Below are positions 28,354 through 64,000 of a DNA stretch of 64,000 bases, in pieces (within the stretch, counting starts at the first letter, position 1; each line of letters starts with the position of its first letter). Made by a program: the position numbers and the translations under genes. The DNA lies in the NCBI GenBank assembly GCA_024653945.1, contig JANLIT010000001.1, positions 20,641 to 84,640 of the forward strand. Reading direction: 5' to 3'. Below the pieces are notes generated by a model, which made no database searches, had not been told where the DNA came from, and worked only from the letters and a program-made list of their open reading frames with translations. The stretch is from Candidatus Campbellbacteria bacterium (GTDB taxonomy: Bacteria > Patescibacteriota > Minisyncoccia > Phycocordibacterales > EsbW-18).

Positions 28354-28755
28354 TCACCCACGCTCATTTTTAAACTTCTCTCGTTCACGCTTCCGTACTC
28401 CTTTTTCGTCAAGACCAAAGTGGTGACCGATTTCGTGCCACAGTGTTTCGTATATAACGTCGGGAAGTGTTTTGCCTAACTCCTGTGCATGCCTTTCCAA
28501 GGGTGTTTTGTACAATGTGATAACGTCGGGATACGCAAAACCAGCGTCGTTACTTCGTTTTGTTCTTGGAACGCCGGTGTACAGTCCGAGAAGATCTGAC
28601 TGAGGAGAAAGCTTCAGTTTTTTCCTCGTTTTTTCATCAACACTTTCTTCAACAAGTATGGCAACATTTTTCACAAGCATGCGAAATTTCTCCGGAAGAC
28701 GCACAAACGCTTCCTGTACCATGGCTTCAAATTCTTCACGTGAGATTGCTGTCAT
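28354..28755 (-). CDS. zincin-like metallopeptidase (HExxH; DUF1025/Zincin_1-like)
   Basis: WHEIGHHFGL motif in a ~130-aa protein. Likely start is the Met at 28755. Confidence 0.55.
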   Translation of the reverse strand: MTAISREEFEAMVQEAFVRLPEKFRMLVKNVAILVEESVDEKTRKKLKLSPQSDLLGLYTGVPRTKRSNDAGFAYPDVITLYKTPLERHAQELGKTLPDVIYETLWHEIGHHFGLDEKGVRKREREKFKNERG

Positions 28756-28756
28756 A

Positions 28757-28900
28757 TGATTTTCCAAAATCACGTCGCGCAAGTGTTGATTCTGCAGAAT
28801 CATGTCACGTACTGTCCATTAAAACGTGACCAAAAGCGCGACGTAATGAGCGAAATTGTGTCACGTACCTGATTCTGCGGAATCATGTCGCGAGACCGAT
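28757..28900 (-). promoter_or_regulatory. upstream region of the zincin gene carrying palindromes (gattctgcagaatc twice) and a hairpin gtcacgt-N13-acgtgac
   Basis: Read directly. The hairpin has the same architecture and a near-identical loop (ctgtccatt) as the element upstream of the adjacent ATL gene. Confidence 0.5.
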
Positions 28901-28903
28901 TCA

Positions 28904-29233
28904 TTAAAATTCATACAACACATCCCAGAAATATTTGATGCGGTCATTTTTTTCTATTTCTATTCCCTCTTGTTTGTAGAGTTTCATGCGTTGTGCCCTG
29001 TACTGCTCGTTTATCCAGATTCTCCCATCAGCATATACAATTCTATGAAAAGGGATTGATGCGCCTTCACCCTCTGCTTTTCCAAGTATTGAGGTAATGC
29101 TTTGTGCTGACATTGCACCACCACCTGCACTACGTGCAATACGCCCGTACGTCGTCACACGTCCGCTTGGGATTTTTTGTGCAAGGCGTACAACACGTTC
29201 GCTAAATGTTGGCCCAAGTACTTTTTTCTTCAT
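28904..29233 (-). CDS. alkyltransferase-like protein (MGMT DNA-binding domain with Phe in place of the catalytic Cys)
   Basis: YGRIARSAGGGAMSAQSITSILGKAEGEGASIPFHRIVYADGRI. The MGMT fold motif PCHRV reads PFHRI here. Confidence 0.6.
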   Translation of the reverse strand: MKKKVLGPTFSERVVRLAQKIPSGRVTTYGRIARSAGGGAMSAQSITSILGKAEGEGASIPFHRIVYADGRIWINEQYRAQRMKLYKQEGIEIEKNDRIKYFWDVLYEF

Positions 29234-29234
29234 A

Positions 29235-29283
29235 CGATTTCACAAAATCGCGTCGCGTAACTGTCCATTGAAACGCGACACCC
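29235..29283 (-). promoter_or_regulatory. operator/5'-UTR hairpin gtcgcgt-N14-acgcgac upstream of the ATL gene
   Basis: cgatttcacaaaatcgcgtcgcgt aactgtccattgaa acgcgac. The stem shows compensatory A/G-T/C changes relative to the 28804-28830 copy, while the loop is conserved. Confidence 0.5.
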
Positions 29284-29300
29284 TTATTCTACCATTCGCG

Positions 29301-29351
29301 CGCCTGCCTGCCCTGCCTGCCCTGCCTGCCGGCAGGCAGGCGGCAGGCAGG
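29301..29351. repeat. G/C-rich tandem-plus-inverted repeat (gcctgccct x3, then ggcaggcaggcggcaggcagg), a strong hairpin/cruciform
   Basis: Read directly. It marks the boundary between the ATL gene region and a GC-rich non-coding stretch. Confidence 0.7.
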
Positions 29352-30249
29352 AATTAGGGAATATAAAACGTAAAATATGGAAAATAATAATATGGAATAG
29401 AGAAAAGGCCCGAGCGCAAGCGTCGGACCTCTTCAGTAACTACCGGCGACCGGCAATGATACTGGAAAAAAGAACGGAATCTACGTCGACCTCTGGAGCG
29501 AACTCCTGAGGATAGATTAAGACGTTGGGAACAGAGCGGCCTATCGCTCTTGGATGATTTTGCGTGTCGCGACCGAAGTCGAGAGCACGTGTCCTGGGTT
29601 GGACATCATCCGTTCCCACGAGCCCTGTGTTTCACTGATGTGTCACACAGAACCATTACCGAGTTATTGCAGAAAGGGTGAGCTCCCTGCGATTTCTCGT
29701 TTGCCTCTGAGGCGATCGTGACCAATTCCTTTTAAGGGCGCTGGTCTCGTTCGTTGTGATGATGTCTGAAGGGTTTTGAGTCCTCCGAACACCCCACTGT
29801 AGAAGTTGTCGATTCTGCCGCAAGCGACAGAGTGCTAGGTCCGACATCTCCTCCTGGTGCAATGGAAACCGAGTTGCTCGCAAGATTGCTCCCGCGTGCT
29901 TCTCTCCCATAGTTTCCCTCGGCTCATTCCACGTTGTCTCACATCGACATTCCCTTTGAGGAGAAGCAAACCGAAGTTCGCAGTCATCCCAACTGGACTA
30001 TCGCGTCTGATGCTAGGCACCGGACTGAAGTGGTTTCAGAGAGAACATTGCACTGTTCTCCTTACCGTGTAACCAATCACTCTCGGTTTGTTGTGGTCCT
30101 CTTGCGAGAGCCGTAACGTACCGCATGCTTGGTATGTGAGAAGTATACGGATAGTGAAGTTGTTGTCAATCACATATCTCGTTTCTCAATAAAAAATACC
30201 TTTCGTCAAATTTTTTGTTTAAATGCATCCCTGTACCGAAAACAGCACG

Positions 30250-30278
30250 TTGACATACAGGAGATACCTGTATACTAT
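30250..30278 (+). promoter_or_regulatory. sigma70-type promoter TTGACA-N17-TACTAT whose spacer is a perfect palindrome (tacagg agat acctgta), a candidate operator
   Basis: -35 at 30250-30255, -10 at 30273-30278, exact 17-bp spacer. The inverted repeat spans 30256-30272. Confidence 0.6.
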
Positions 30279-30558
30279 CCATTTTGGTTCAGGCAAACAC
30301 TCGGTGGCTTGCTGGTCTTTCTGGGGGCGGGGATGAGCCCAAACCTAGAGAGTTTAAAGGGCGATGAGCCCGAACAGCCAATAGTAGACAGGAAACTGCT
30401 ACTGTTTCGAGGGTTCAATTCCCTTGGGGTGGCGGAGAGATGATCTTGAGTAGCGTAGACTAGGCGGGAGACGGAGAAGCTTTGGCTCTGGCCAAGGTGG
30501 AGTCGCCACTGAAAAACCGCCCTCTCAGGAAATATGCTCGAAGTCGCTTGAACCACAG

Positions 30559-30592
30559 TGTCACTCTTTCGGGGGTGACATTTTATTTTTTT
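30559..30592 (+). terminator. intrinsic terminator on the + strand (tgtcac...gtgaca followed by ttttattttttt)
   Basis: Hairpin followed by a 12-nt T-rich run. It closes a ~300-nt transcription unit that starts at the 30250 promoter. Confidence 0.5.
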
Positions 30593-31162: not shown

Positions 31163-31308
31163 ATTCTACCACTGTAAAAAGAGCCCTAATATAATATAAA
31201 AAAGAAAAGATGCCCGACACCATTTTTCATTTTTACTGGCGTTTTAATATATTAGATTGACTCTTCTCGTGCCTCGATAATTTATCTTAATTAATTTTAG
31301 AGTTGTAA

Positions 31309-32535
31309 TTATTTAATATTTTTAATTATAGATTTGAATTCAGGCTTATTCTTATAAAAAGTGAAAATTTCCCATTCGTCTATTTCTTTTTTTCCTACGG
31401 TTTTTGCCTTGATTAATTTACTTAAATATTTATAAAAATCTTTGTGTTTTTCCAATAAAGCAAATTTACACATCTCAAAATCATCTCTAGTTAAGCTCCA
31501 ATCTTCTAACAGTAAAACTTTTTCTATATCTTCCAATTTTTTCCCTTGTTTTTTTAATCCAATACAGTAGTTAATAGCTATGTATTTTTTCTCAGAAGCA
31601 TCTATTTTGAGATTTGAAATAAAATTATATATGGATTTTGTATAATTATATTGTTCATGTTTGACTAAATAATGTAATGGATTGGTTAATAAAAAATTTT
31701 TATTTTTTATTTCTTCAGAAAAGTTAAGTTGAGCTTCTTGAATGATATAAGTTCCTATAAAATACAATAAGTAAAGTGAATCGGTAAGATATTTGTCTGT
31801 TATAGTTATAGTTTTGTTTGAATTATTTTTTTCGTCTCCATATCTTTTAATATACTCTCGATCCTTTTTTCCTTCATTGTGAACAATAAGATTTCTTATT
31901 TTAATTAATTTTTTTAAATCTTCCAAATTTTTACTAATTGGATCTAAATTAAGAGCCATGTCCTTTTTTAAAACTTTTAGTTTTCGATCTAATCCTTTTT
32001 CAATCAAAAGAGCTTCAATTTCTCTGTCAATTAGAAATTTTTGGGCCTCTGCTATGTTTTCTATATTTTCTAGCTCTTTATAGTTGATTGACTGATTTTC
32101 TAATGATAATTTCTTGTAATTCTTTTTATAATAAAAACTAAATAATTTCGAAAGTAAAATATCTAAAGTTGAAACCATAGACACTATAGTATTTTGTGCA
32201 AATAAATGTCCTTGTAATGGTTGTGTCTTTAAAACATCAACAAGTATCTCAGAAACATTACTTAATTCTTTTTTTGAAAATTTAAGTTTTAACTTACCTT
32301 TGGCATGATTTTTATTTTCCTTGGCTTTTTTCTTTAATACTTCCAAAAAGGGTTTAAGCTTTTTATTGTCATATTCTTGCGCATGTTTCCCAATTTCTCT
32401 AATTGATATTTCTTGAAGAAAAATATTGTTTTCAAAAACATTCTGCATATGTCTAAAAGAATCAATGTTCGTATTTGCCTCCCCTTTGATTAACTTTGTT
32501 TGTTGTTTTATTTTTGGTATCTTTTTAGTCTTCAT
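31309..32535 (-). CDS. Lys-rich hypothetical protein with a HEPN-like Rx4H motif (putative abortive-infection/defence RNase); extremely AT-rich (~27% GC)
   Basis: The motif KIRNLIVHNEG (R-x4-H) sits mid-protein in a 408-aa protein. Composition is roughly 15-30 points below its neighbours. It is a single gene with no operon partners. Confidence 0.5.
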   Translation of the reverse strand: MKTKKIPKIKQQTKLIKGEANTNIDSFRHMQNVFENNIFLQEISIREIGKHAQEYDNKKLKPFLEVLKKKAKENKNHAKGKLKLKFSKKELSNVSEILVDVLKTQPLQGHLFAQNTIVSMVSTLDILLSKLFSFYYKKNYKKLSLENQSINYKELENIENIAEAQKFLIDREIEALLIEKGLDRKLKVLKKDMALNLDPISKNLEDLKKLIKIRNLIVHNEGKKDREYIKRYGDEKNNSNKTITITDKYLTDSLYLLYFIGTYIIQEAQLNFSEEIKNKNFLLTNPLHYLVKHEQYNYTKSIYNFISNLKIDASEKKYIAINYCIGLKKQGKKLEDIEKVLLLEDWSLTRDDFEMCKFALLEKHKDFYKYLSKLIKAKTVGKKEIDEWEIFTFYKNKPEFKSIIKNIK

Positions 32536-32737
32536 ATTTATATGATATATCTTAAGAAATAGGGTCAGGCACCTTTTAATATCCCCACCATACACCCGAA
32601 AAACGAAAAGACAATGTGCACGAACAGTGGCAAGATTAAACCTCGCTCACGTAAAACCAAAAAGCCAAGTAAAAGAAAAGCCGCGTCCCGGGAGTTGTAT
32701 CCGGAAACGCGGTCTCAAAAAAGTGGTCAAACAGAGT

Positions 32738-52537: not shown

Positions 52538-52783
52538 TCACCAACGTGGCGTATGACCGAATCGGTTCCTCAACTCTGCAAGTTGGCCAGCGGCTTGCAT
52601 ACGCCGATACCCCTCGCTCTTCACCTTCTTTTTCTGAGCCGGCGGTGGCGGGGTTGTCGACACCTCTTCAGAGAGCCGACAGCACTCAAAGCACGTCCGC
52701 CCCTCCCTCTCTTCGCGGTCCTTATCCCACCCACAGGAGGGACAGAAACCCTTCTCAACAAATTCTTCTTTTCGGGTATACAT
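52538..52783 (-). CDS. small zinc-ribbon protein
   Basis: CPSCG ... CFECC. GGAGG SD eight nt upstream of the ATG. Confidence 0.4.
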   Translation of the reverse strand: MYTRKEEFVEKGFCPSCGWDKDREEREGRTCFECCRLSEEVSTTPPPPAQKKKVKSEGYRRMQAAGQLAELRNRFGHTPRW

Positions 52784-53352: not shown

Positions 53353-53367
53353 TTCAAATTATAATTT

Positions 53368-54198
53368 TTAAGGTGTGCACAATTGGTGCGCTTCATATAA
53401 AACCTCATCAACTTTTTTCCCAGTAATACCGGCTGTTTCCAAAATATTTGGATTATCAATAATGTTTTTACACAACACAATGTTTTGTTGATAGAGCATA
53501 TCCCGTTCTTTCTTTGAAAGCGTGGTAAGACATGAGAGCGGATGTAGTTTCGTTTCCTCAATAAGGTCTTGTACATTTCCTTTGCGTGGATATCCCCATC
53601 CAATCATCGTAATACCAACACACTTTCCATGCATAATGGCATTCTCAGTAAACTTTGTATTCGTCACCAGCCACTGCGTGCACGTACCACCTGGAGGGCA
53701 TAACCCGTCGTAGTTCCCCGCCTGCAGGTCAAGTGTTCGGGCATGAATATAGAGCGACACCTTCACATCGGTTTTAAATCCCTGTGCGTTGTGAAATTTT
53801 GCTTCAACCAGAATAAGCTCTTTTTCTTTTTGTGCAATAACATCAATCTCGTGTGATACACACTTTCCTTGCATCATGGCACCAACACGTACGGTGTACC
53901 CTTTTTTCTTAAATACCTCACCAAGAAGTTGCTCGAATGGAAAACCTGACGGACCAAGCTCAAGTACAGCACGTCGGAGAGAGTATCGGGCCGCAATAGG
54001 GTGGTGTTCCTTTTTCTGGAGCAATCTGAGCGCGTGATTATAGATGTGCGACGTAGTAATACCTTCGTGCAACTCTTTTTCAATATGGGTAAGGATTGTT
54101 GTGGCAACATCATCTGATGCCCCTGCATTTTTAAGCGAACGGATAAGTTTTCCTGGAGAAAACTCTTCCCGAGTTCCATCTAGTTTTGAAATAAGCAT
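53368..54198 (-). CDS. ATP-cone domain fused to a Mrr-like (PD-(D/E)xK) restriction-endonuclease domain
   Basis: N-terminus MLISKLDGTREEFSPGKLIRSL is ATP-cone-like. HEIDVIA...LILVEAK is an Mrr-type catalytic core. Confidence 0.55.
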   Translation of the reverse strand: MLISKLDGTREEFSPGKLIRSLKNAGASDDVATTILTHIEKELHEGITTSHIYNHALRLLQKKEHHPIAARYSLRRAVLELGPSGFPFEQLLGEVFKKKGYTVRVGAMMQGKCVSHEIDVIAQKEKELILVEAKFHNAQGFKTDVKVSLYIHARTLDLQAGNYDGLCPPGGTCTQWLVTNTKFTENAIMHGKCVGITMIGWGYPRKGNVQDLIEETKLHPLSCLTTLSKKERDMLYQQNIVLCKNIIDNPNILETAGITGKKVDEVLYEAHQLCTP

Positions 54199-54225
54199 AT
54201 CTAAAGTATATCGTGAGAAAGGATG

Positions 54226-57929: not shown

Positions 57930-58020
57930 GGTGTGTAGTTTACCCCGTTAGATACAAACCCGCTATACCAACTCATGTCTATATATAAACAAGATATCTA
58001 ACGGGGTGTATCACCCAAAC

Positions 58021-58051
58021 AAAAAGCCACCGATGGTTTGGTGGCTTTTTG
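58021..58051. terminator. bidirectional intrinsic terminator (aagccacc / ggtggctt flanked by A- and T-runs)
   Basis: Read directly. Downstream of the DUF4870 gene. Confidence 0.65.
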
Positions 58052-58067
58052 TACTACGCCGTCTACG

Positions 58068-58436
58068 CTAGAACGTAAAGTATTTTGAGAAACCTCCAAC
58101 GAGTGGAAGCGCCTTTTCTCTCTTTTCTACAACGTTCACAATTCCGATAATGGAAAGAATGAGTGTTGCGATATTGACAATGTTCAATAGCATCCAGAGT
58201 TGCCACATAAACATGCCCAAAATCCATACAATAACTTCAATGCTCAATACTACAAGTCCTTGTTTAATGTGGAACTTCACAAATGGTTGTTCTTTGTTTG
58301 TAAAAAACGGAATTAAAACCAATGGGCCGATGTATGAAAGAATACCCATGAGTGTATTCTTACTTGCAGCATCGTCTGCGTGTGTTCCTTGTGGTGCGCT
58401 GTTTTGTTGTGACGCGTTATTGTTTACTTGATCCAT
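58068..58436 (-). CDS. DUF4870-family membrane protein
   Basis: GILSYIGPLVLIPFFTNKEQPFVKFHIKQGLVVLSI matches the DUF4870 signature. Confidence 0.55.
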   Translation of the reverse strand: MDQVNNNASQQNSAPQGTHADDAASKNTLMGILSYIGPLVLIPFFTNKEQPFVKFHIKQGLVVLSIEVIVWILGMFMWQLWMLLNIVNIATLILSIIGIVNVVEKREKALPLVGGFSKYFTF

Positions 58437-58540
58437 ACTTTTTATATATACTACTAGTAATAATAGTTGTCTTCTTAGTGTATCACTCTCCCCATATCTC
58501 AAAAACAAGACGGTGGATTACGTGTGATTACTGTTGTTTT

Positions 58541-59431
58541 TTAATCAAAAATACTGATGAGATATTTGTCGATTTCCCTCTGATCCATATCATAAAAGTT
58601 AATTTTCTTTCGGTGCAATATACGGGCCAAGTCTGTGCCCACAAATCGCCAATGCCACGGTTCAAATTGATAAAACGTATTTCCCTGTGGATACGAGAGA
58701 ACAAAACCATATTTATACGCATTATCATCAAGCCATGTATATGCAGATGTTGCCCCAAAACCATCTAACCCACCGTTCAAACCAGTCGTCGTAAAATCAA
58801 TCGTCGTTCCGAGTTGGTGTTCTGAGTATCCTTGGTCTGCAGAAAAAGCATTCGCGCCCGACCCATAGCTCACTGTGTATCCAGTTTTAAGAGCAGTTTG
58901 GGTACCAAATGAACGATATGCAGAAACAATAAAAAGCTCTACATCATCATCCTCTGCGTCTTGTATGAGGTTTTCAAGGAAACTTCTTACTTGTCGGTGA
59001 ATTTGTTGTGCAACTTTTTCGTCATAGAGAAGATCCTTATCAATAGTAACGAGCCTTGGTGGCGTATAATTTTCATTCAAAAAGTATACTTTGGAATATT
59101 TTTGCAATAATTCAGGATCTAGTTTACTCAACTTTTCAAATTCTCCCACTGTGCCACTAAGCTCTTCTATTTGATCTTCAAGATTATTCACACGTGACTC
59201 TTGTAAATTAAGTTCATCACGCAAATTTGTCTTTTCTTCTTCTGCTTGTAACAACTCACCTTGAAGTGACACGACCGAGCTTGATGCTGACAAATAAAGA
59301 CCGTTGATTGTATAAAAACGATATCCTCCGTATCCGAGAATAATAAGAAGGACAACAACAATAATGCTCAAGAGTGTGTCTGCTATTTTGTGTGAAGGTT
59401 CCATATGTGTAATGTGGCTTGATTGTAGCAC
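58541..59431 (-). CDS. D-alanyl-D-alanine carboxypeptidase (VanY/M15B) with an N-terminal TM helix and coiled coil
   Basis: SAYRSFGTQ ... SEHQLGTTIDF ... EPWHWRFVG matches VanY zinc-binding motifs. Confidence 0.75.
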   Translation of the reverse strand: MLQSSHITHMEPSHKIADTLLSIIVVVLLIILGYGGYRFYTINGLYLSASSSVVSLQGELLQAEEEKTNLRDELNLQESRVNNLEDQIEELSGTVGEFEKLSKLDPELLQKYSKVYFLNENYTPPRLVTIDKDLLYDEKVAQQIHRQVRSFLENLIQDAEDDDVELFIVSAYRSFGTQTALKTGYTVSYGSGANAFSADQGYSEHQLGTTIDFTTTGLNGGLDGFGATSAYTWLDDNAYKYGFVLSYPQGNTFYQFEPWHWRFVGTDLARILHRKKINFYDMDQREIDKYLISIFD

Positions 59432-59501
59432 CTTTTACTCTAGAGAAATAGAAAAGCACCCTGTATCTCTACAAGGTGCTTCGGGTTGCCCCAAGGAAGT
59501 C

Positions 59502-59723
59502 CTAGAAGGACTGGCTCGGGAGGAGAAAGATGACAGGCTGGCGCGGGTTCATGTGAATCACCCCGCAGAAAACCAGCATTCGGTTCGGCTTCGCTCCGGT
59601 GGGGGCGCTGATGCGCACCTTGCGCATCGTCCCCAACTTCCTCGGGGTGCTGGGATCGAGGTCGTTCTCGACAGAGTGGAACGTCTTCTGCACACGCTCC
59701 CAGCGGTTCTTACGGTCAGCCAT
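59502..59723 (-). CDS. small hypothetical protein in a GC-rich (~60%) cassette
   Basis: ATG preceded by GGGAGAG. A hairpin plus T-tract follows on the minus strand. Alternative overlapping ORFs exist on both strands. Confidence 0.3.
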   Translation of the reverse strand: MADRKNRWERVQKTFHSVENDLDPSTPRKLGTMRKVRISAPTGAKPNRMLVFCGVIHMNPRQPVIFLLPSQSF

Positions 59724-59915
59724 GTACTCTCTCCCGCTAAGTCACGCGAAATTGCGTGACATATTTTCCGATACAACTGTATCATACTATATTATACATG
59801 TCAAGTACTATGAACGGTGCTCTATTTTTGTGCACATCACACTCGCCCACCACTAAAGCATCTAGAATCTAACCTATACACAGTTTAGTATAAAAATTTT
59901 TCAAAATTCCAGAGC

Positions 59916-60245
59916 ATGTATGGTAAACTATTGTGTATGGAAACACTTATCCACGCAGATATTTTTTTCTTTATCACAAGCATCTTTGTTGTTCTTCTTA
60001 TCATTACGTTTGGTGTATCAATGTATTACATCATTCCAATTTTTAGAGACCTGCGACACCTCTCAGAAGTCGCGCGAAAAGAAGGTGATAAACTTGTTGG
60101 TGATATTGATGAACTGCGCGGTGCGGTGAAAGAAGAAGGCACGAAGATAAAAACGATTTTTGATTATTTTATTGGATTATTCATTAAACGGCAGAAAATA
60201 AACAAAAAAAAGAAAGCGGGTATTAAAAAAGACAGTAACCAGTAG
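59916..60245 (+). CDS. small membrane protein (one TM helix, then a Lys-rich tail)
   Basis: Hydrophobic helix IFFFITSIFVVLLIITFGV. Confidence 0.35.
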   Translation: MYGKLLCMETLIHADIFFFITSIFVVLLIITFGVSMYYIIPIFRDLRHLSEVARKEGDKLVGDIDELRGAVKEEGTKIKTIFDYFIGLFIKRQKINKKKKAGIKKDSNQ

Positions 60246-60340
60246 AATTACATCGCGCTCTGTGTTACGTTTCTATTAACGGTACGTGACATGATCTCGT
60301 GAGATCAACAATTACGCGATGCGATTTTGTGAAATCGCAC

Positions 60341-60736
60341 ATGAAAAAAACAACAAAAAAGGTGGCGACGGGAGCAGGAATCGCAGTACTCGCAGCAGCG
60401 GCCGCAGGAACATATTTCTTTTACGGGTCAAAACATGCGAAGAAAAATCGTGCTACAGCCAAGGCGTGGTCACACAAAGCAAAAAACGAAGTTATACAAA
60501 AACTAAAGAAAGCGTCAACGATAACCGAAAAAGGATACCACGCAACAGTTAAAGAGGTTGCTGGACGTTACAAAAAACTACAGAAACTTGACCCTAAAGA
60601 AGTCGCCGTGTTTGTGTCAGAACTCAAAAGTCATTGGAAAAATATTTCAAAGGAATTAAAAGCTGGAACAAAAACTGTTCATCACACAAAGAAACCAACC
60701 GCAAAAAAGAAATCGGCCAAGAAAACAAGAAAATAG
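60341..60736 (+). CDS. Lys-rich basic protein with an N-terminal TM/signal anchor
   Basis: MKKTTKKVATGAGIAVLAAAAAGTYFFYG, then a Lys/Ala-rich helical region. Confidence 0.4.
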   Translation: MKKTTKKVATGAGIAVLAAAAAGTYFFYGSKHAKKNRATAKAWSHKAKNEVIQKLKKASTITEKGYHATVKEVAGRYKKLQKLDPKEVAVFVSELKSHWKNISKELKAGTKTVHHTKKPTAKKKSAKKTRK

Positions 60737-60790
60737 GCCCCTAAAGTAAAAAACACCCATTCGGGTGTTTTTTACTGCTATACTGGTTGT

Positions 60791-61996
60791 ATGAAAAAAA
60801 TCCACTCTCTTTCTTGGTTGGTGGTTCTGTTCTGTCTTCTATTGATTAGTATGACTGTGGCTCCCTCTTCCGTCCACGCAAACACTGATTTAAAAATATC
60901 AGGATGGATTCCCTACTGGGCAGTATCCAGTGGCACAAAAGATGCACGAAAAAATATTGATGCATTCTCGGCTATTTTTCCTTTTAACTATTCCGTAAAA
61001 AGTGACGGTTCCCTGCTTGATTTAGGAAAAATCAAACAAAGTGCATGGAAGAAGTTGTTCACTGTAGCAAAAAAGAAAGATGTGCTTGTCATTCCAACAG
61101 TTATGTGGAGCAACACGGGTGCCATATACACAGTATTGAACAACCCAAACCTTAGAGCAAAACATATTGGAGAGATTGTAACGATGGTGAAAAAGCAAAA
61201 GTTTGATGGTGTGGACATTGATTATGAAGGAAAGAGTGCCGAAACATATACTTCTTTTGCACTTTTTCTCAAAGAGCTCAAAAAGAAACTTGGAAAAAGA
61301 AAAGTTCTCTCGTGCACCATTGAAGCACGAACTCCACCAGATTCTCTCTACAAAACAATTCCCACCGACTTGCGCTATGCGAATGATTACAATGCAATTG
61401 CAAAATACTGTGATCGTGTGAACATCATGACCTATGACCAGCAACGCGCAGATCTCAAACTCAACGACGCACACGTTGGGGAAGCATATATCCCCATGTC
61501 AGACCCCGCGTGGGTCCGCAAGGTCATTGAGTTGACACTACAGACCATTCCTAAAGAAAAAATCTCACTTGGCGTTCCCACATATGGACATGAGTATGAG
61601 GTTATCGTACGCTCTGGAGCATATCAGGAGTATGGGAAGACTGGTGCGTTCAATCCTTCGTATGGAATCAAGACCGCGAAACAATACGGTATCACACCCG
61701 AGCGTAGTGACGCTGGCGAGTTGAGTTTTACGTTCTCTCTCCTCCCAACGGCGCCACAATTCCTATATAACGCACCCATCCCAACAAACACATCCAGCGC
61801 AAATCGAGTTGCAGCACAATCATTTGCATACACAAAGGCGACCGGGCTCGCGTCAGTGTTCTATTATGCAACGTGGAGTGATGCGGAAGCTATCAGACAA
61901 AAGATTGAGCTTGCGCGGGAATATGGACTTGCGGGTATTGCACTTTTTAAAATTGACGGTAACGAAGATTCCGCCATGTGGAAACTCTTTGATTAA
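60791..61996 (+). CDS. secreted glycoside hydrolase family 18 (chitinase-like)
   Basis: Signal peptide. GH18 catalytic motif FDGVDIDYEG. Confidence 0.8.
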   Translation: MKKIHSLSWLVVLFCLLLISMTVAPSSVHANTDLKISGWIPYWAVSSGTKDARKNIDAFSAIFPFNYSVKSDGSLLDLGKIKQSAWKKLFTVAKKKDVLVIPTVMWSNTGAIYTVLNNPNLRAKHIGEIVTMVKKQKFDGVDIDYEGKSAETYTSFALFLKELKKKLGKRKVLSCTIEARTPPDSLYKTIPTDLRYANDYNAIAKYCDRVNIMTYDQQRADLKLNDAHVGEAYIPMSDPAWVRKVIELTLQTIPKEKISLGVPTYGHEYEVIVRSGAYQEYGKTGAFNPSYGIKTAKQYGITPERSDAGELSFTFSLLPTAPQFLYNAPIPTNTSSANRVAAQSFAYTKATGLASVFYYATWSDAEAIRQKIELAREYGLAGIALFKIDGNEDSAMWKLFD

Positions 61997-62010
61997 AAAA
62001 TACCGCTAAA

Positions 62011-62727
62011 CTATTTATTATTTCGGAGATATGTAAGTGTTATTGCACGAAACCCAAAGAAAAGAAGTGGTACTGCAATAATCTGTAAAACTGATATCCA
62101 CGGCGACGAAATAACCGACAAATACCAAAAAGATTGTTGAGGTAAACCAACTTGAACAAAGATATAAAGCAGAGATGTTACCAAAAGTGTTAGTACCCCC
62201 GACATGACAAAAAAGATGCCTGATTTTGAAACGACAGAAAACGAAGACAGTTGTTGTTGTTTAATATCTCGGAGTTTAAAAAGTAAAAATATCTGCATTG
62301 GAATAAAGAAGAGTACGTGCGAAAGCCACACGGGAGCATAGTTTGTATCAAATGTAGGAATTAAAAAGCTTAGGGAAAAATACACACCCGAGAGAATGAG
62401 TACTATGGCCGACACAACAGTAAAAGCTTTATGGTGAGAAAACGGTTTCAGCATAGCAAGCACTTCTATAAATAAAAAGTATGCGAGAAGATGCAGAATA
62501 AGTGTTATGAAAAAAAATGGATATAAATCACGCTGAACAACGGTAATGTTTGCGTTTATAATAATGTTTGGCATTTTAAACAAAAGAAGAAATACAAATC
62601 CAAAAGTTAAATACAAATGAAATGCATGTTTTCTTCCGCTTAAAAACCACAGCACAAGAAAATAGAGGCCACTTACAATAGAGACCAAAAAAGCAATCCC
62701 TGCGAGGAGAAAATTTGTGGTAATCAT
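62011..62727 (-). CDS. polytopic membrane protein, hypothetical
   Basis: Seven or eight hydrophobic helices. No SD before the annotated ATG, so the start is uncertain. Confidence 0.45.
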   Translation of the reverse strand: MITTNFLLAGIAFLVSIVSGLYFLVLWFLSGRKHAFHLYLTFGFVFLLLFKMPNIIINANITVVQRDLYPFFFITLILHLLAYFLFIEVLAMLKPFSHHKAFTVVSAIVLILSGVYFSLSFLIPTFDTNYAPVWLSHVLFFIPMQIFLLFKLRDIKQQQLSSFSVVSKSGIFFVMSGVLTLLVTSLLYIFVQVGLPQQSFWYLSVISSPWISVLQIIAVPLLFFGFRAITLTYLRNNK

Positions 62728-62729
62728 GT

Positions 62730-62770
62730 ATAGTAAGAATAGTAACGCTTATAGTAAGAATAGTAACGCT
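62730..62770. repeat. two tandem copies of a 20-bp unit (atagtaagaatagtaacgct) with 21-bp period, directly upstream of the membrane-protein start
   Basis: Read directly. Confidence 0.75.
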
Positions 62771-62830
62771 ACACAAAAAAATTGCAAACAAGCACTGTCT
62801 TGATATACCATTATATACGTGAATATAACA

Positions 62831-62856
62831 AAAACCCGCCACCTGGCGGGTTTTTT
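62831..62856. terminator. bidirectional intrinsic terminator (cccgcc acct ggcggg flanked by A- and T-runs)
   Basis: Read directly. Downstream of the cupredoxin gene. Confidence 0.65.
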
Positions 62857-62863
62857 AAAATCG

Positions 62864-63277
62864 TTATTCTGTTACCACCACCGTTCCCTGCATTGAAGGA
62901 TGCAGTGAGCAGGTGTATTGGAATACTCCAACAGTATCAAAGGTAAAAGAGAATGTAGCGCCCGTGGCCAATGAGACGCTTGATGGGCCAGCACCTCCAA
63001 CCACACTTACCGTGTGTGGTGCACTATCCTTGTTCGTCCATGTAACCGATGTTCCTTTCTTCACCGTAACCGTCTTCGGAGAAAAGGCAAAATTTTCTAT
63101 TGCTACAGACGCCGTAGGCACTAAAAATTCTGCTGTTGGTGGCAGTGTTGTTGGTGTCACTGTTGTTGTGGTTGTTCCTGGGTCCGTGGGAGGAACGAGA
63201 ACGGCTGGTTTTCGTACCCACATAACACCGAGAACAACAAGAATAATAATAACAATCCAAATAATGAGTGATTTCAT
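62864..63277 (-). CDS. cupredoxin (plastocyanin/pseudoazurin-like blue-copper protein) with an N-terminal anchor and a Thr/Pro linker
   Basis: Copper ligands in type-1 spacing: H (APHTV) ... C-SLH-PSM (YTCSLHPSMQG). Confidence 0.7.
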   Translation of the reverse strand: MKSLIIWIVIIILVVLGVMWVRKPAVLVPPTDPGTTTTTVTPTTLPPTAEFLVPTASVAIENFAFSPKTVTVKKGTSVTWTNKDSAPHTVSVVGGAGPSSVSLATGATFSFTFDTVGVFQYTCSLHPSMQGTVVVTE

Positions 63278-63466
63278 ATGTATAAAATTTATTTGTAATA
63301 CTATGTTTTGCACGGAGAGTGTCTCATGGTCCGTGTTTAAATTTTATCGTACAATGTCTTTATACGATTTCATTGTATCAAAGTATGTATAAAACTTACA
63401 CAAAGAAAAGGCCGACCCTAGAAAAGGCCGGCTGTTACTACCCCCAACACCACGAGTGGCGCCAAT

Positions 63467-63862
63467 CTAGTGCTGTTGGCAGGCTTCAATAAAGCGATTT
63501 GTAACATGGAACACACCCCTATCATCCTGAACCAGCAGAACTTGGTCAGGAGACATCCACTGCGGTGAAGCCATGTCCAGCCACGAACACCAGAAGCCGA
63601 AGAACACCAGATTTGGGTCCCAGAGGTTCTCTTCATAGAACTTCATCAGTTCTTGAAGATGAAACCCTGCCCAGAGGTCGCCCTTTTTTCTCTGGAAAAA
63701 GAGAACCAACCTTCCCGCCGACACCTCAACCTCAAGCTTGCCGAACCTGCCGGTAGCTCCCGTTGGTCGGACGGAAATGTCACTTGGCCTGGTGGACTGT
63801 CTACCGTGCAGGTTCTCAGTAGATTCCCCAAGAACTCTGAACTCTGCTACTGAAAAGGACAT
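63467..63862 (-). CDS. hypothetical protein in a GC-rich (~55%) cassette
   Basis: ATG at 63862 preceded by GAGGAG. I recognise no family. Confidence 0.35.
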   Translation of the reverse strand: MSFSVAEFRVLGESTENLHGRQSTRPSDISVRPTGATGRFGKLEVEVSAGRLVLFFQRKKGDLWAGFHLQELMKFYEENLWDPNLVFFGFWCSWLDMASPQWMSPDQVLLVQDDRGVFHVTNRFIEACQQH

Positions 63863-64000
63863 TGGCACTCCTCTCTAGGTGTTTTTGATATCGTTCTGGG
63901 GAAACCTTAGCACACAAAAGAACGCAGGGAAATGCTTTACTTCAAATGCTACTTTCCGATACAATGAAAGAATATGAGATTCGGCATATTTGAATCAGGA

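Follow-up and report, generated by a model that had tools for sequence, protein, structure and literature searches.

Why do two neighbouring genes in a bacterium of the Candidate Phyla Radiation (CPR) carry nearly the same hairpin in front of their start codons? The question arose from the initial annotation of a 64,000-nt stretch of a Candidatus Campbellbacteria metagenome-assembled genome (MAG; GCA_024653945.1, contig JANLIT010000001.1; hereafter the window). It placed the two hairpins upstream of a zincin-like peptidase gene and an alkyltransferase-like (ATL) gene, and proposed that they co-regulate a DNA-alkylation-damage module. Here we report that each of the two hairpins is the first half (H1) of one copy of a short interspersed palindromic repeat specific to Paceibacteria (CPR), a repeat without earlier description, and that the element is unrelated to alkylation repair. 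With a probability of about 0.6, we read it as a selfish or formerly mobile palindromic element resembling the repetitive extragenic palindromes (REPs) and the Rickettsia palindromic elements (RPEs), which is co-transcribed as a structured leader without a Shine-Dalgarno (SD) sequence before the ATG.

All coordinates refer to the + strand of the window, and both genes lie on the − strand. The gene identities were upheld: the first gene (28354–28755, 133 aa), which lies 3' of a composite copy, encodes a Zincin_1 metallopeptidase (PF06262, E 2.3e-24), and the second (28904–29233, 109 aa) encodes a protein with the MGMT DNA-binding domain (PF01035, E 9.8e-14). We call the latter alkyltransferase-like because its catalytic PCHR motif is replaced by PFHRI; it also scores under the TIGR00589 (ogt) cut-off. 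A protein with 100% identity to the zincin is annotated in a Candidatus Campbellbacteria MAG. Both hairpins, with their near-identical loops and compensatory stems, were confirmed in the sequence. On the + strand, the zincin-side hairpin is GTCACGT-actgtccattaaa-ACGTGAC (28804–28830) and the ATL-side hairpin is GTCGCGT-aactgtccattgaa-ACGCGAC (29252–29279); read on the coding strand, they are GUCACGU-uuuaauggacagu-ACGUGAC in the zincin leader and GUCGCGU-uucaauggacaguu-ACGCGAC in the ATL leader. The stems differ by one compensatory change at pair 4 (A/T vs G/C). The shared flank noted earlier is real as well, since 28752–28791 aligns with 29230–29269 at 80% over 40 nt (repeat family D2). The palindrome GATTCTGCAGAATC, which had been listed twice, is perfect at 28788–28801, while the second occurrence (28871–28884) is GATTCTGCGGAATC, with one mismatch.

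Beyond these features, each hairpin proved to be one half of a two-hairpin unit. The simple full copy forms the entire ATL leader (29234–29279, − strand), and both of its hairpins are present in the minimum free energy (MFE) fold. Its H1 (29252–29279) has a 7-bp stem, GUCGCGU/ACGCGAC, with the 14-nt loop UUCAAUGGACAGUU; its second hairpin, H2 (29235–29250), is C-GAUUU[UGUG]AAAUC-G, in the context GCGAUUU[UGUG]AAAUCGU, and the ATG (29233–29231) stands 2 nt past AAAUC. The leader contains no SD sequence. A covariance model trained on copies from other genomes matched 29229–29285 with 68.4 bits (E 1.8e-15), a score that is not independent because this copy, too, was among the 73 used for training. 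A −10-like box, TAGAAT (29286–29291, − strand), lies exactly 6 nt 5' of the first H1 base.

The zincin leader is composite, with one copy nested in another. Its inner full copy (28787–28830, − strand) comprises H1 at 28804–28830 (GUCACGU/ACGUGAC) and the H2 variant GAUUC[UGCA]GAAUC at 28788–28801, differs from the ATL copy by compensatory changes, and was matched by the covariance model at 28781–28836 (61.3 bits, E 1.2e-13). This copy is enclosed by an outer, interrupted one (28756–28847, − strand; inverted repeat I15, 92% complementary), whose 12-bp stem pairs 28836–28847 with 28769–28780 (arms AUUACGUCGCGC/GCGCGACGUGAU) and whose terminal H2 unit, CGCGAC-GU-GAUUUUGGAAAAUC-AU (28756–28779), adjoins the zincin ATG (28755–28753). 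The MFE fold of the whole leader is a three-way junction of −32.9 kcal/mol (z −4.6). In the spacer between the two genes lies a decayed third copy (28864–28902, − strand; 21.4 bits, E 0.0013), which includes a member of repeat family D1 at 28870–28892; its H1 has shrunk to GGUC-ucgc-GAC and its H2 is GAUUCCGCAGAAUC.

A further full copy, the third in the window, was found about 31 kb from the ATL/zincin pair on the opposite strand. By pattern matches, sequence and fold it has the nested architecture of the zincin leader (60251–60340, + strand). An outer stem of CAUCGCG (60251–60257) with CGCGAUG (60315–60321) surrounds an inner H1 (60264–60290; GUUACGU/ACGUGAC, with one U.G pair) and an inner H2 (60293–60306; GAUCU[CGUG]AGAUC), and is followed by a terminal H2 (60323–60336) and an ATG at 60341. 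The covariance model matched 60258–60313 (37.2 bits, E 1.4e-7), and a TAGAAT box (60243–60248) stands 6 nt before a G within the outer stem. The gene behind this copy (60341–60736, + strand, from the ORF listing) encodes a small Lys-rich protein of 131 aa with an N-terminal membrane anchor; its orthologue at L060 (MATKKKGMS...GAGAYYF; L-numbers denote loci from other genomes or metagenomes) also has the element, with the ATG at +2. In both nested leaders, a whole inner unit of H1 and an H2 variant sits within the outer H1 loop and the final CGCGAY+H2 unit adjoins the ATG. The outer H1 arms covary too, being GUCGCG/CGCGAC in the zincin leader and AUCGCG/CGCGAU at 60.3 kb. In total, the window holds three full copies (ATL, zincin and 60.3 kb) and three partial units. 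The 22-nt composite unit GATTYYNNRRAATCRYGTCRCG has 8 matches in the window vs 0.38 expected, a number reached in 0 of 100 shuffles; the 9-mer CTGTCCATT alone is unremarkable, with 12 window matches at up to one mismatch vs 16.5 expected. As a separate observation on this region, the cumulative GC skew drops across the window to a minimum near 60 kb and then turns, and within 58000–64000 the AT skew jumps to +0.15 to +0.26; the replication strand may change (origin or terminus) near the third copy.

How far does the element extend beyond this genome? The unit is about 45 nt long and can be written in DNA as GTCGCG-y-TTCAATnGACAnT-r-CGCGAC, ry, H2 (GATTT-TGCA-AAATC) and ry-ATG, with the RNA consensus gcGUCGCG-y-UUcAAUnGACAnU-r-CGCGAC-ry-GAUUUUGCAAAAUC-ry-AUG. 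H1, rich in G+C, has a 7-bp stem and a conserved loop of 15–16 nt (UUCAAUnGACA), and H2 is a weak A+U hairpin, GAUUU[UGCA]AAAUC. When 185,579 species genomes were scanned for exact matches to the pattern CGYGAYRYGATTTTGNRAAATC (about 37 bits; by our own estimate about 9 chance matches expected), 100 stretches were returned. About 85 of these came from Paceibacteria-type MAGs and had a complete upstream H1; there, sequence lying outside the search pattern forms the same H1 and loop. The host MAGs are labelled Paceibacterota, Nomura-, Yonath- and Kaiserbacteria, and Minisyncoccia, and in a single MAG several contigs were matched. A second scan, of metagenomes, was anchored on H1 only and left H2 unconstrained; it gave 87 stretches representing 61 distinct copies. 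With the covariance model, about 10 further copies were found within 8 kb of known ones in other genomes. The element is thus not peculiar to the ATL/zincin locus. With Rfam 15 at gathering thresholds, the whole window gave one tRNA only, and at E ≤ 10 the region 28700–29350 gave only chance miRNA-like matches on a G+C-rich repeat at 29300; a known RNA family was rejected on these grounds. We found no description of the motif in the literature, and nothing relevant on SD use, structured RNA or leaderless mRNAs in CPR.

Is the pairing within the two hairpins selected? Base pairs were counted on 73 and on 96 distinct copies. The closing pair of H1 is CG in 51 and UA in 35 copies and its outer pair GC in 81 and AU in 9; the outer pair of H2 is UA in 70 and CG in 26, with none unpaired. 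Double-sided changes occur in 7 of 13 pairs, and the observed score was reached by 0 of 500 shuffles; paired cells amount to 98% vs 19–52% when the partners are slid, in an alignment (A2) that was fitted to the model and in which the covariation runs partly between subfamilies. In the sample that left H2 unconstrained, pair 5 of this hairpin is CG in 31 and TA in 25 copies, six H2 stems occur (GATTT, GATTC, GATCT, GATCC, GGTTC and GAATC), and the H2 loop is TGCA in 26 of 51 copies and TGCT in 11, others making up the rest. The hairpin is therefore a genuine, selected base-paired element and not a protein half-site, and the secondary structure is conserved with covariation behind it. Mismatches are G.U in 10 and A.C in 14 cases, so there is no wobble bias on the sense strand. 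Since G.U does not exceed A.C, the covariation is no proof of a role as RNA; the absent bias would be expected from random decay of inserted copies or from selection on a DNA hairpin. An intrinsic terminator is not indicated, as the terminator scan flagged no copy and the H1 loop has 13–16 nt instead of 3–8.

These counts bear on the first proposal for the locus, namely that the hairpins are either a functional RNA hairpin or a dimeric-regulator site. Selected base pairing agrees with the former. Covarying stems, and an H2 loop that can do without a palindrome, make a dimeric-regulator site unlikely. More broadly, an alkylation-damage module in which the zincin and ATL genes are governed jointly, through the operator of a dimeric transcription factor or through an RNA switch peculiar to the locus, would account for the palindromic units and for two adjacent genes carrying the element, one of them repair-related and with a Tag glycosylase gene nearby. 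The half-site bases, however, covary instead of being conserved and the loop centres are non-palindromic, on which ground a palindromic operator was rejected. The third window copy precedes an unrelated gene; the genes downstream of copies elsewhere belong to 73 Pfam families, and other copies lie inside coding sequences. A damage-regulon operator of the LexA or Ada type is accordingly not what these half-sites and 73 families describe. The Tag gene itself has no copy and carries a plain leaderless-type promoter (TAGAAT, 6 nt, ATG). Zincin orthologues with 64–73% identity are syntenic and convergent with thrS, and lack the element; by the refuting condition given with the initial annotation, this argues against a conserved regulator specific to the locus; among their loci only L004 has kept a copy, a degenerate one at the orthologous position 5' of its ATL gene. 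The alkylation-damage proposal thus fell, and we regard co-regulation of this kind as highly improbable.

If the downstream genes have no common function, do the copies at least share a position? The open reading frames (ORFs) starting just past an element, which make up the 73 families, include rpsG (S7), rplB (L2), rplW (L23), rpoC (RNA polymerase beta'), hisS (histidyl-tRNA synthetase, HisRS), uvrB, ftsA, atpG (ATP synthase gamma), glyA (serine hydroxymethyltransferase, SHMT), glutamine synthetase, grx, ybeY, parB and a pilin of a type IV secretion system (T4SS). An L24-like (rplX) ORF, judged by sequence, also lies downstream of a copy. Among 93 CPR copies, an ATG stands exactly +2 from the end of H2 in 40 and within 1–9 nt in 57, and about 35–40% of copies have no start codon nearby. 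In the H1-anchored sample, an adjacent ATG was found in 15 of 22 copies with an A+U stem (13 of them at +2) and in 4 of 29 with other stems. This start-adjacent A+U-stem subfamily fills the spacer or forms the entire 5' leader, and contains no SD sequence. Sixteen of 55 start-adjacent copies begin no more than 15 nt past the upstream stop codon, so that the element is the whole intercistronic spacer there. All gene-associated copies, including those within coding sequences, are in sense orientation.

Such positions raise the possibility that the element is a dedicated cis-acting RNA module for SD-independent initiation or its control: the ribosome, or a conserved RNA-binding factor, would recognise H1 together with H2, which would position the AUG lying 2 nt further on. 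Leadered mRNAs and internal cistrons could in this way be translated or globally regulated, and the copies found within genes would be by-products or mark internal starts. We hold this view tentatively and as a minority reading. The +2 spacing speaks for it, both in 40 of the 93 copies and in the unbiased sample, as do the constant sense orientation, the weak A+U H2 as the only form common beside an ATG, and the stem covariation. The unit has no SD, and SDs are almost absent genome-wide. Copies stand between stop and start codons in ribosomal-protein operons (rplX, rpsG, rplW and rplB), the loop is conserved across the class, and copies are retained at orthologous sites: those at grx, ybeY, pilin, msrA and transferase genes are 80–95% identical vs 52–78% for their flanks, a comparison biased by the search pattern having fixed half of the element. 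Behind the copies in the sugar-transferase genes stands an ATG at +4, in frame, with which the catalytic domain begins. On the other side, intact copies in DnaE, MsrA and TrmD are translated through with no adjacent ATG, more than a third of all copies have no start nearby, G.U is not favoured over A.C, and the zincin orthologues manage without the element. Moreover, ribosome binding is expected to be hindered, not helped, when a hairpin reaches to within 2 nt of the AUG.

The way in which the host starts translation sets the background for these readings. SD-like 4-mers precede 6 of the 46 first ATGs in the window, vs 9% at internal ATGs, and 10 of 46 ORFs have TANNNT exactly 6 nt upstream of their first ATG, vs 1 of 241 internal ATGs (examples of this leaderless type lie at 31163–31180, 52545–52560, 53353–53368, 54199–54214 and 60776–60790). 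The scarcity of SDs together with the pattern of TANNNT, 6 nt and ATG makes leaderless mRNAs appear the norm in the host, and indicates, as far as sequence can, that they are widespread in this Campbellbacteria MAG. Since the TAGAAT box of the ATL gene has this leaderless spacing of 6 nt, its transcript is predicted to start at the base of H1; we infer that the ATL and 60.3-kb transcripts would begin at or in the element, which would then be the whole leader. A distance of 6 nt from −10 box to H1 holds at the ATL and 60.3-kb copies and is not enriched in other genomes, where TATAAT boxes lie 27–35 nt upstream of several copies.

Could the element itself be the promoter? As a portable promoter in the manner of the Correia elements of Neisseria, it would drive the downstream gene with nGACA of the loop as −35 (TGGACA, TCGACA or TTGACA) and the 3' half of H2 as −10 (CAAAAT, CAGAAT or TAAAAT, 18 nt from the −35). 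A promoter scan does flag TGGACA-18-CAGAAT in the inner zincin copy (9 of 12 matches), GACA and AAAT are the best-conserved unpaired bases, and start-adjacent copies whose H2 is not of the A+U form have CAGAAT or GAGAAT and never CTGAAT, albeit in small numbers. The inner promoter of nested copies would yield a short leader with the last H2 only. At +2 copies, however, 3 nt separate the −10-like hexamer from the ATG, where leaderless promoters of the host use 6, so that a normal start site would fall past the start codon; for this reason a leaderless promoter inside the element was rejected. The second position of the supposed −35 is the most variable of the loop, the stem covariation and the conserved 5' half of H2 are left unexplained, and several copies have the independent TATAAT boxes mentioned above. 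A promoter function is thus unlikely.

A host with leaderless mRNAs could also use the element for RNA processing. In mitochondria, tRNAs act as punctuation signals for RNA processing, and by analogy an endonuclease would cut 5' of the AUG and free leaderless mRNAs from polycistrons. The element stops 2 nt short of the AUG and takes up the spacers between cistrons, which would suit such a role. Efficient cleavage would nevertheless destroy the DnaE, MsrA and TrmD mRNAs that carry intact copies, and because these copies lie, evidently translated, in essential coding sequences, we consider a punctuation signal very unlikely.

What, then, accounts for copies both before and within genes? Copies in frame read as the peptide G-R-x-S-x-D-x-x-R-H-D-F-A-K-S, were seen in at least seven genes, and add 13–15 residues (...R-H-D-F-A-K-S) to proteins including MsrA, DnaE, TrmD and a sugar transferase (L013:5433–5489, L076:2759–2814, L050:355–410, L044:2429–2484 and L021/L033/L045). 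The insertion in MsrA, found at the same site in two genomes, matches exactly a 13-residue gap relative to Mycobacterium tuberculosis MsrA (1NWA), and that in DnaE matches a gap of about 15 residues relative to Taq Pol III alpha (2HPI). The TrmD copy lies within a variable linker, and the sugar-transferase copy follows the GxG motif in three genomes, one of them with a double copy. Copies in DnaE, MsrA and TrmD are multiples of 3 nt, stop-free and intact, and they are evidently translated. Coding copies tend to follow a G, which gives a Gly codon.

Copies have also been inserted into one another and rearranged. The nested architecture of the zincin and 60.3-kb leaders recurs at L016, L058, L065, L104 and L045. 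A second short repeat of about 33 nt (ccatttgaata.aaat.tttc...aagca) occurs in the H1 loop after AATGGAC (L028:1431–1519, L067:2310–2397 and L111:2580–2640) and also alone, which suggests that the H1 loop is an insertion hotspot. Mosaic subfamilies have extra flanking hairpins or three-hairpin forms; in one, at the metagenome loci L121, L124, L131, L139, L184 and L194, H1+H2 (GATTCTGCTGAATC) is bracketed by two more hairpins (gaggtcggacctcgg ... agaggaccgacctct) and does not lie beside start codons. Decay or absence at orthologous sites is seen in the zincin orthologues, at L004 and in the decayed window copy at 28864–28902.

Many dispersed near-identical copies, compensatory subfamilies, nesting, mosaics, decay at orthologous sites and in-frame insertions together led us to recognise behaviour of the type shown by REPs and the bacterial interspersed mosaic elements (BIMEs) built from them, or by RPEs, and hence to favour the selfish or formerly mobile element. 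According to this reading, the element would be transcribed with its gene and fold into H1 and H2, would give a structured leader to a start that is otherwise leaderless or tightly coupled, and might thereby affect translation initiation or mRNA stability of any gene downstream.

Several observations weigh against this reading. Terminal inverted repeats (TIRs) and target-site duplications (TSDs), as expected of a miniature inverted-repeat transposable element (MITE), were not found: the two ends are different hairpins, and coding and intergenic flanks showed no duplication on inspection. Nothing consistent emerged as microhomology at insertion sites. No transposase was present at two inspected loci with oppositely oriented copies, where only LexA, HU, Grx and Hsp20 genes lie between, and the motif was not found in viral contigs, on which ground carriage by phages was rejected. 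Near-identical sequence and loop across many species-level genomes are unusual for selfish DNA of the REP type, and conservation across the class fits a conserved trans-acting partner, that is, a host function, better. Neutral insertion does not explain the exact +2 spacing to the ATG, and the sense orientation of all coding copies hints at an RNA-level or strand-linked constraint. Pure selfishness fits poorly with the +2 spacing, with a loop conserved class-wide and with retention at orthologous sites, and we therefore keep a real function in initiation in consideration, as the lesser possibility. In that case, a portable 45-nt start module set 2 nt ahead of an AUG, spreading like a mobile element, would allow or globally gate initiation on internal and leadered cistrons and might, speculatively, be a bacterial counterpart of internal ribosome entry sites (IRESs) or ribosome shunts.

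Some copies and some neighbouring DNA deserve mention in their own right. Two copies (L041:1255–1310 and L064:4854–4909) have a consensus DnaA box (TTATCCACA) as their direct neighbour in A+T-rich DNA and possibly lie within oriC regions. A lone copy at L111:2249–2330, in a 700-nt A+T-rich intergenic region, is placed between a terminator-like hairpin and a hairpin with U run of its own; it could be an independently transcribed small-RNA form of the element. In the window, directly upstream of the promoter-like box of the ATL gene, is a G+C-rich perfect inverted repeat of tandem CCTGCCTGC 9-mers (29297–29351; 12-nt arms, 100% complementary), which gave the chance miRNA-like Rfam matches only. 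Between the ATL and Tag genes, about 750 nt (29400–30150, − strand) are free of ORFs and richer in G+C, fold at −283.7 kcal/mol with z −4.9 on the − strand (20 shuffles) vs z −2.0 on the + strand, and contain a terminator-like hairpin with a U run (29421–29408, − strand); no Rfam match was obtained for this region even at E ≤ 1. It is a candidate for a large structured non-coding RNA. Further along (30251–30560, + strand) is a near-consensus promoter-like site, TTGACA-17-TATACT (about 30251–30279). The next 280 nt or so, which gave neither a convincing ORF nor an Rfam match, may represent another small RNA or leader. An island of low G+C content (31309–32595; 27% vs about 44% elsewhere) has a 428-aa Lys/Asn-rich ORF without a Pfam match and was probably acquired horizontally.

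The element matters because in CPR/Patescibacteria, with their reduced ribosomes and genomes, how translation starts is poorly known; here a repeat conserved across a class sits 2 nt before the starts of essential genes and is tolerated in frame inside others. If active in initiation, it would represent a new mechanism of start-site selection. If merely selfish, it would be a relative of REPs and RPEs that is unusual in its small size and its conservation, and a useful marker. It is also a hazard for the annotation and structure prediction of CPR proteins, as a source of false N-terminal extensions and inserts.

How does it compare with known systems? Like riboswitches and ribosomal-protein leaders, the element is a conserved, covarying two-hairpin structure directly 5' of a start codon. 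Those leaders serve coherent gene sets and do not occur inside coding sequences, whereas this one precedes 73 families, has no Rfam match and is found in genes too. With the REPs and BIMEs of enterobacteria it shares short (about 35–45 nt) hairpin repeats, dispersed copies (three full and three partial in 64 kb), a mosaic arrangement (nesting, the 33-nt insert and the extra-hairpin subfamily) and subfamilies that keep stem complementarity; REPs are co-transcribed with neighbouring genes, a likeness that probably holds for our element. REPs occur strictly outside genes, for the most part 3' of them, have species-specific sequences and are linked to REP-associated tyrosine transposases (RAYTs). 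Our element, unlike them, also lies in frame inside genes (MsrA, DnaE, TrmD and the sugar transferase) and otherwise mostly 2 nt 5' of starts, is near-constant in sequence across a class, and had no transposase nearby at the two loci inspected.

Correia/NEMIS elements of Neisseria and the pneumococcal BOX, RUP and SPRITE repeats are small repeats found preferentially just upstream of genes and transcribed into leaders, and the Correia and pneumococcal repeats carry sigma-70-like hexamers or promoters and insert into one another (PMC10969869). The present element likewise nests, lies 5' of genes and has a promoter-like match. Correia elements measure 100–155 bp and have terminal inverted repeats, a TA duplication and RNase III processing; ours has neither TIRs nor TSDs, and the spacing of its promoter-like hexamers is wrong for the ATG beside it. 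RPEs, finally, are palindromes of a reduced-genome lineage that lie in frame in unrelated conserved genes and encode a recurrent peptide (PMC10969869). Our element does the same, with a recurrent peptide of its own and insertions that match gaps in known structures. RPEs are about 100–150 bp long and confined to one genus, and to our knowledge have not been linked to start codons. At about 45 nt, spread through Paceibacteria/CPR class-wide and with most copies adjoining an ATG, the element described here is set apart from them by length and host.

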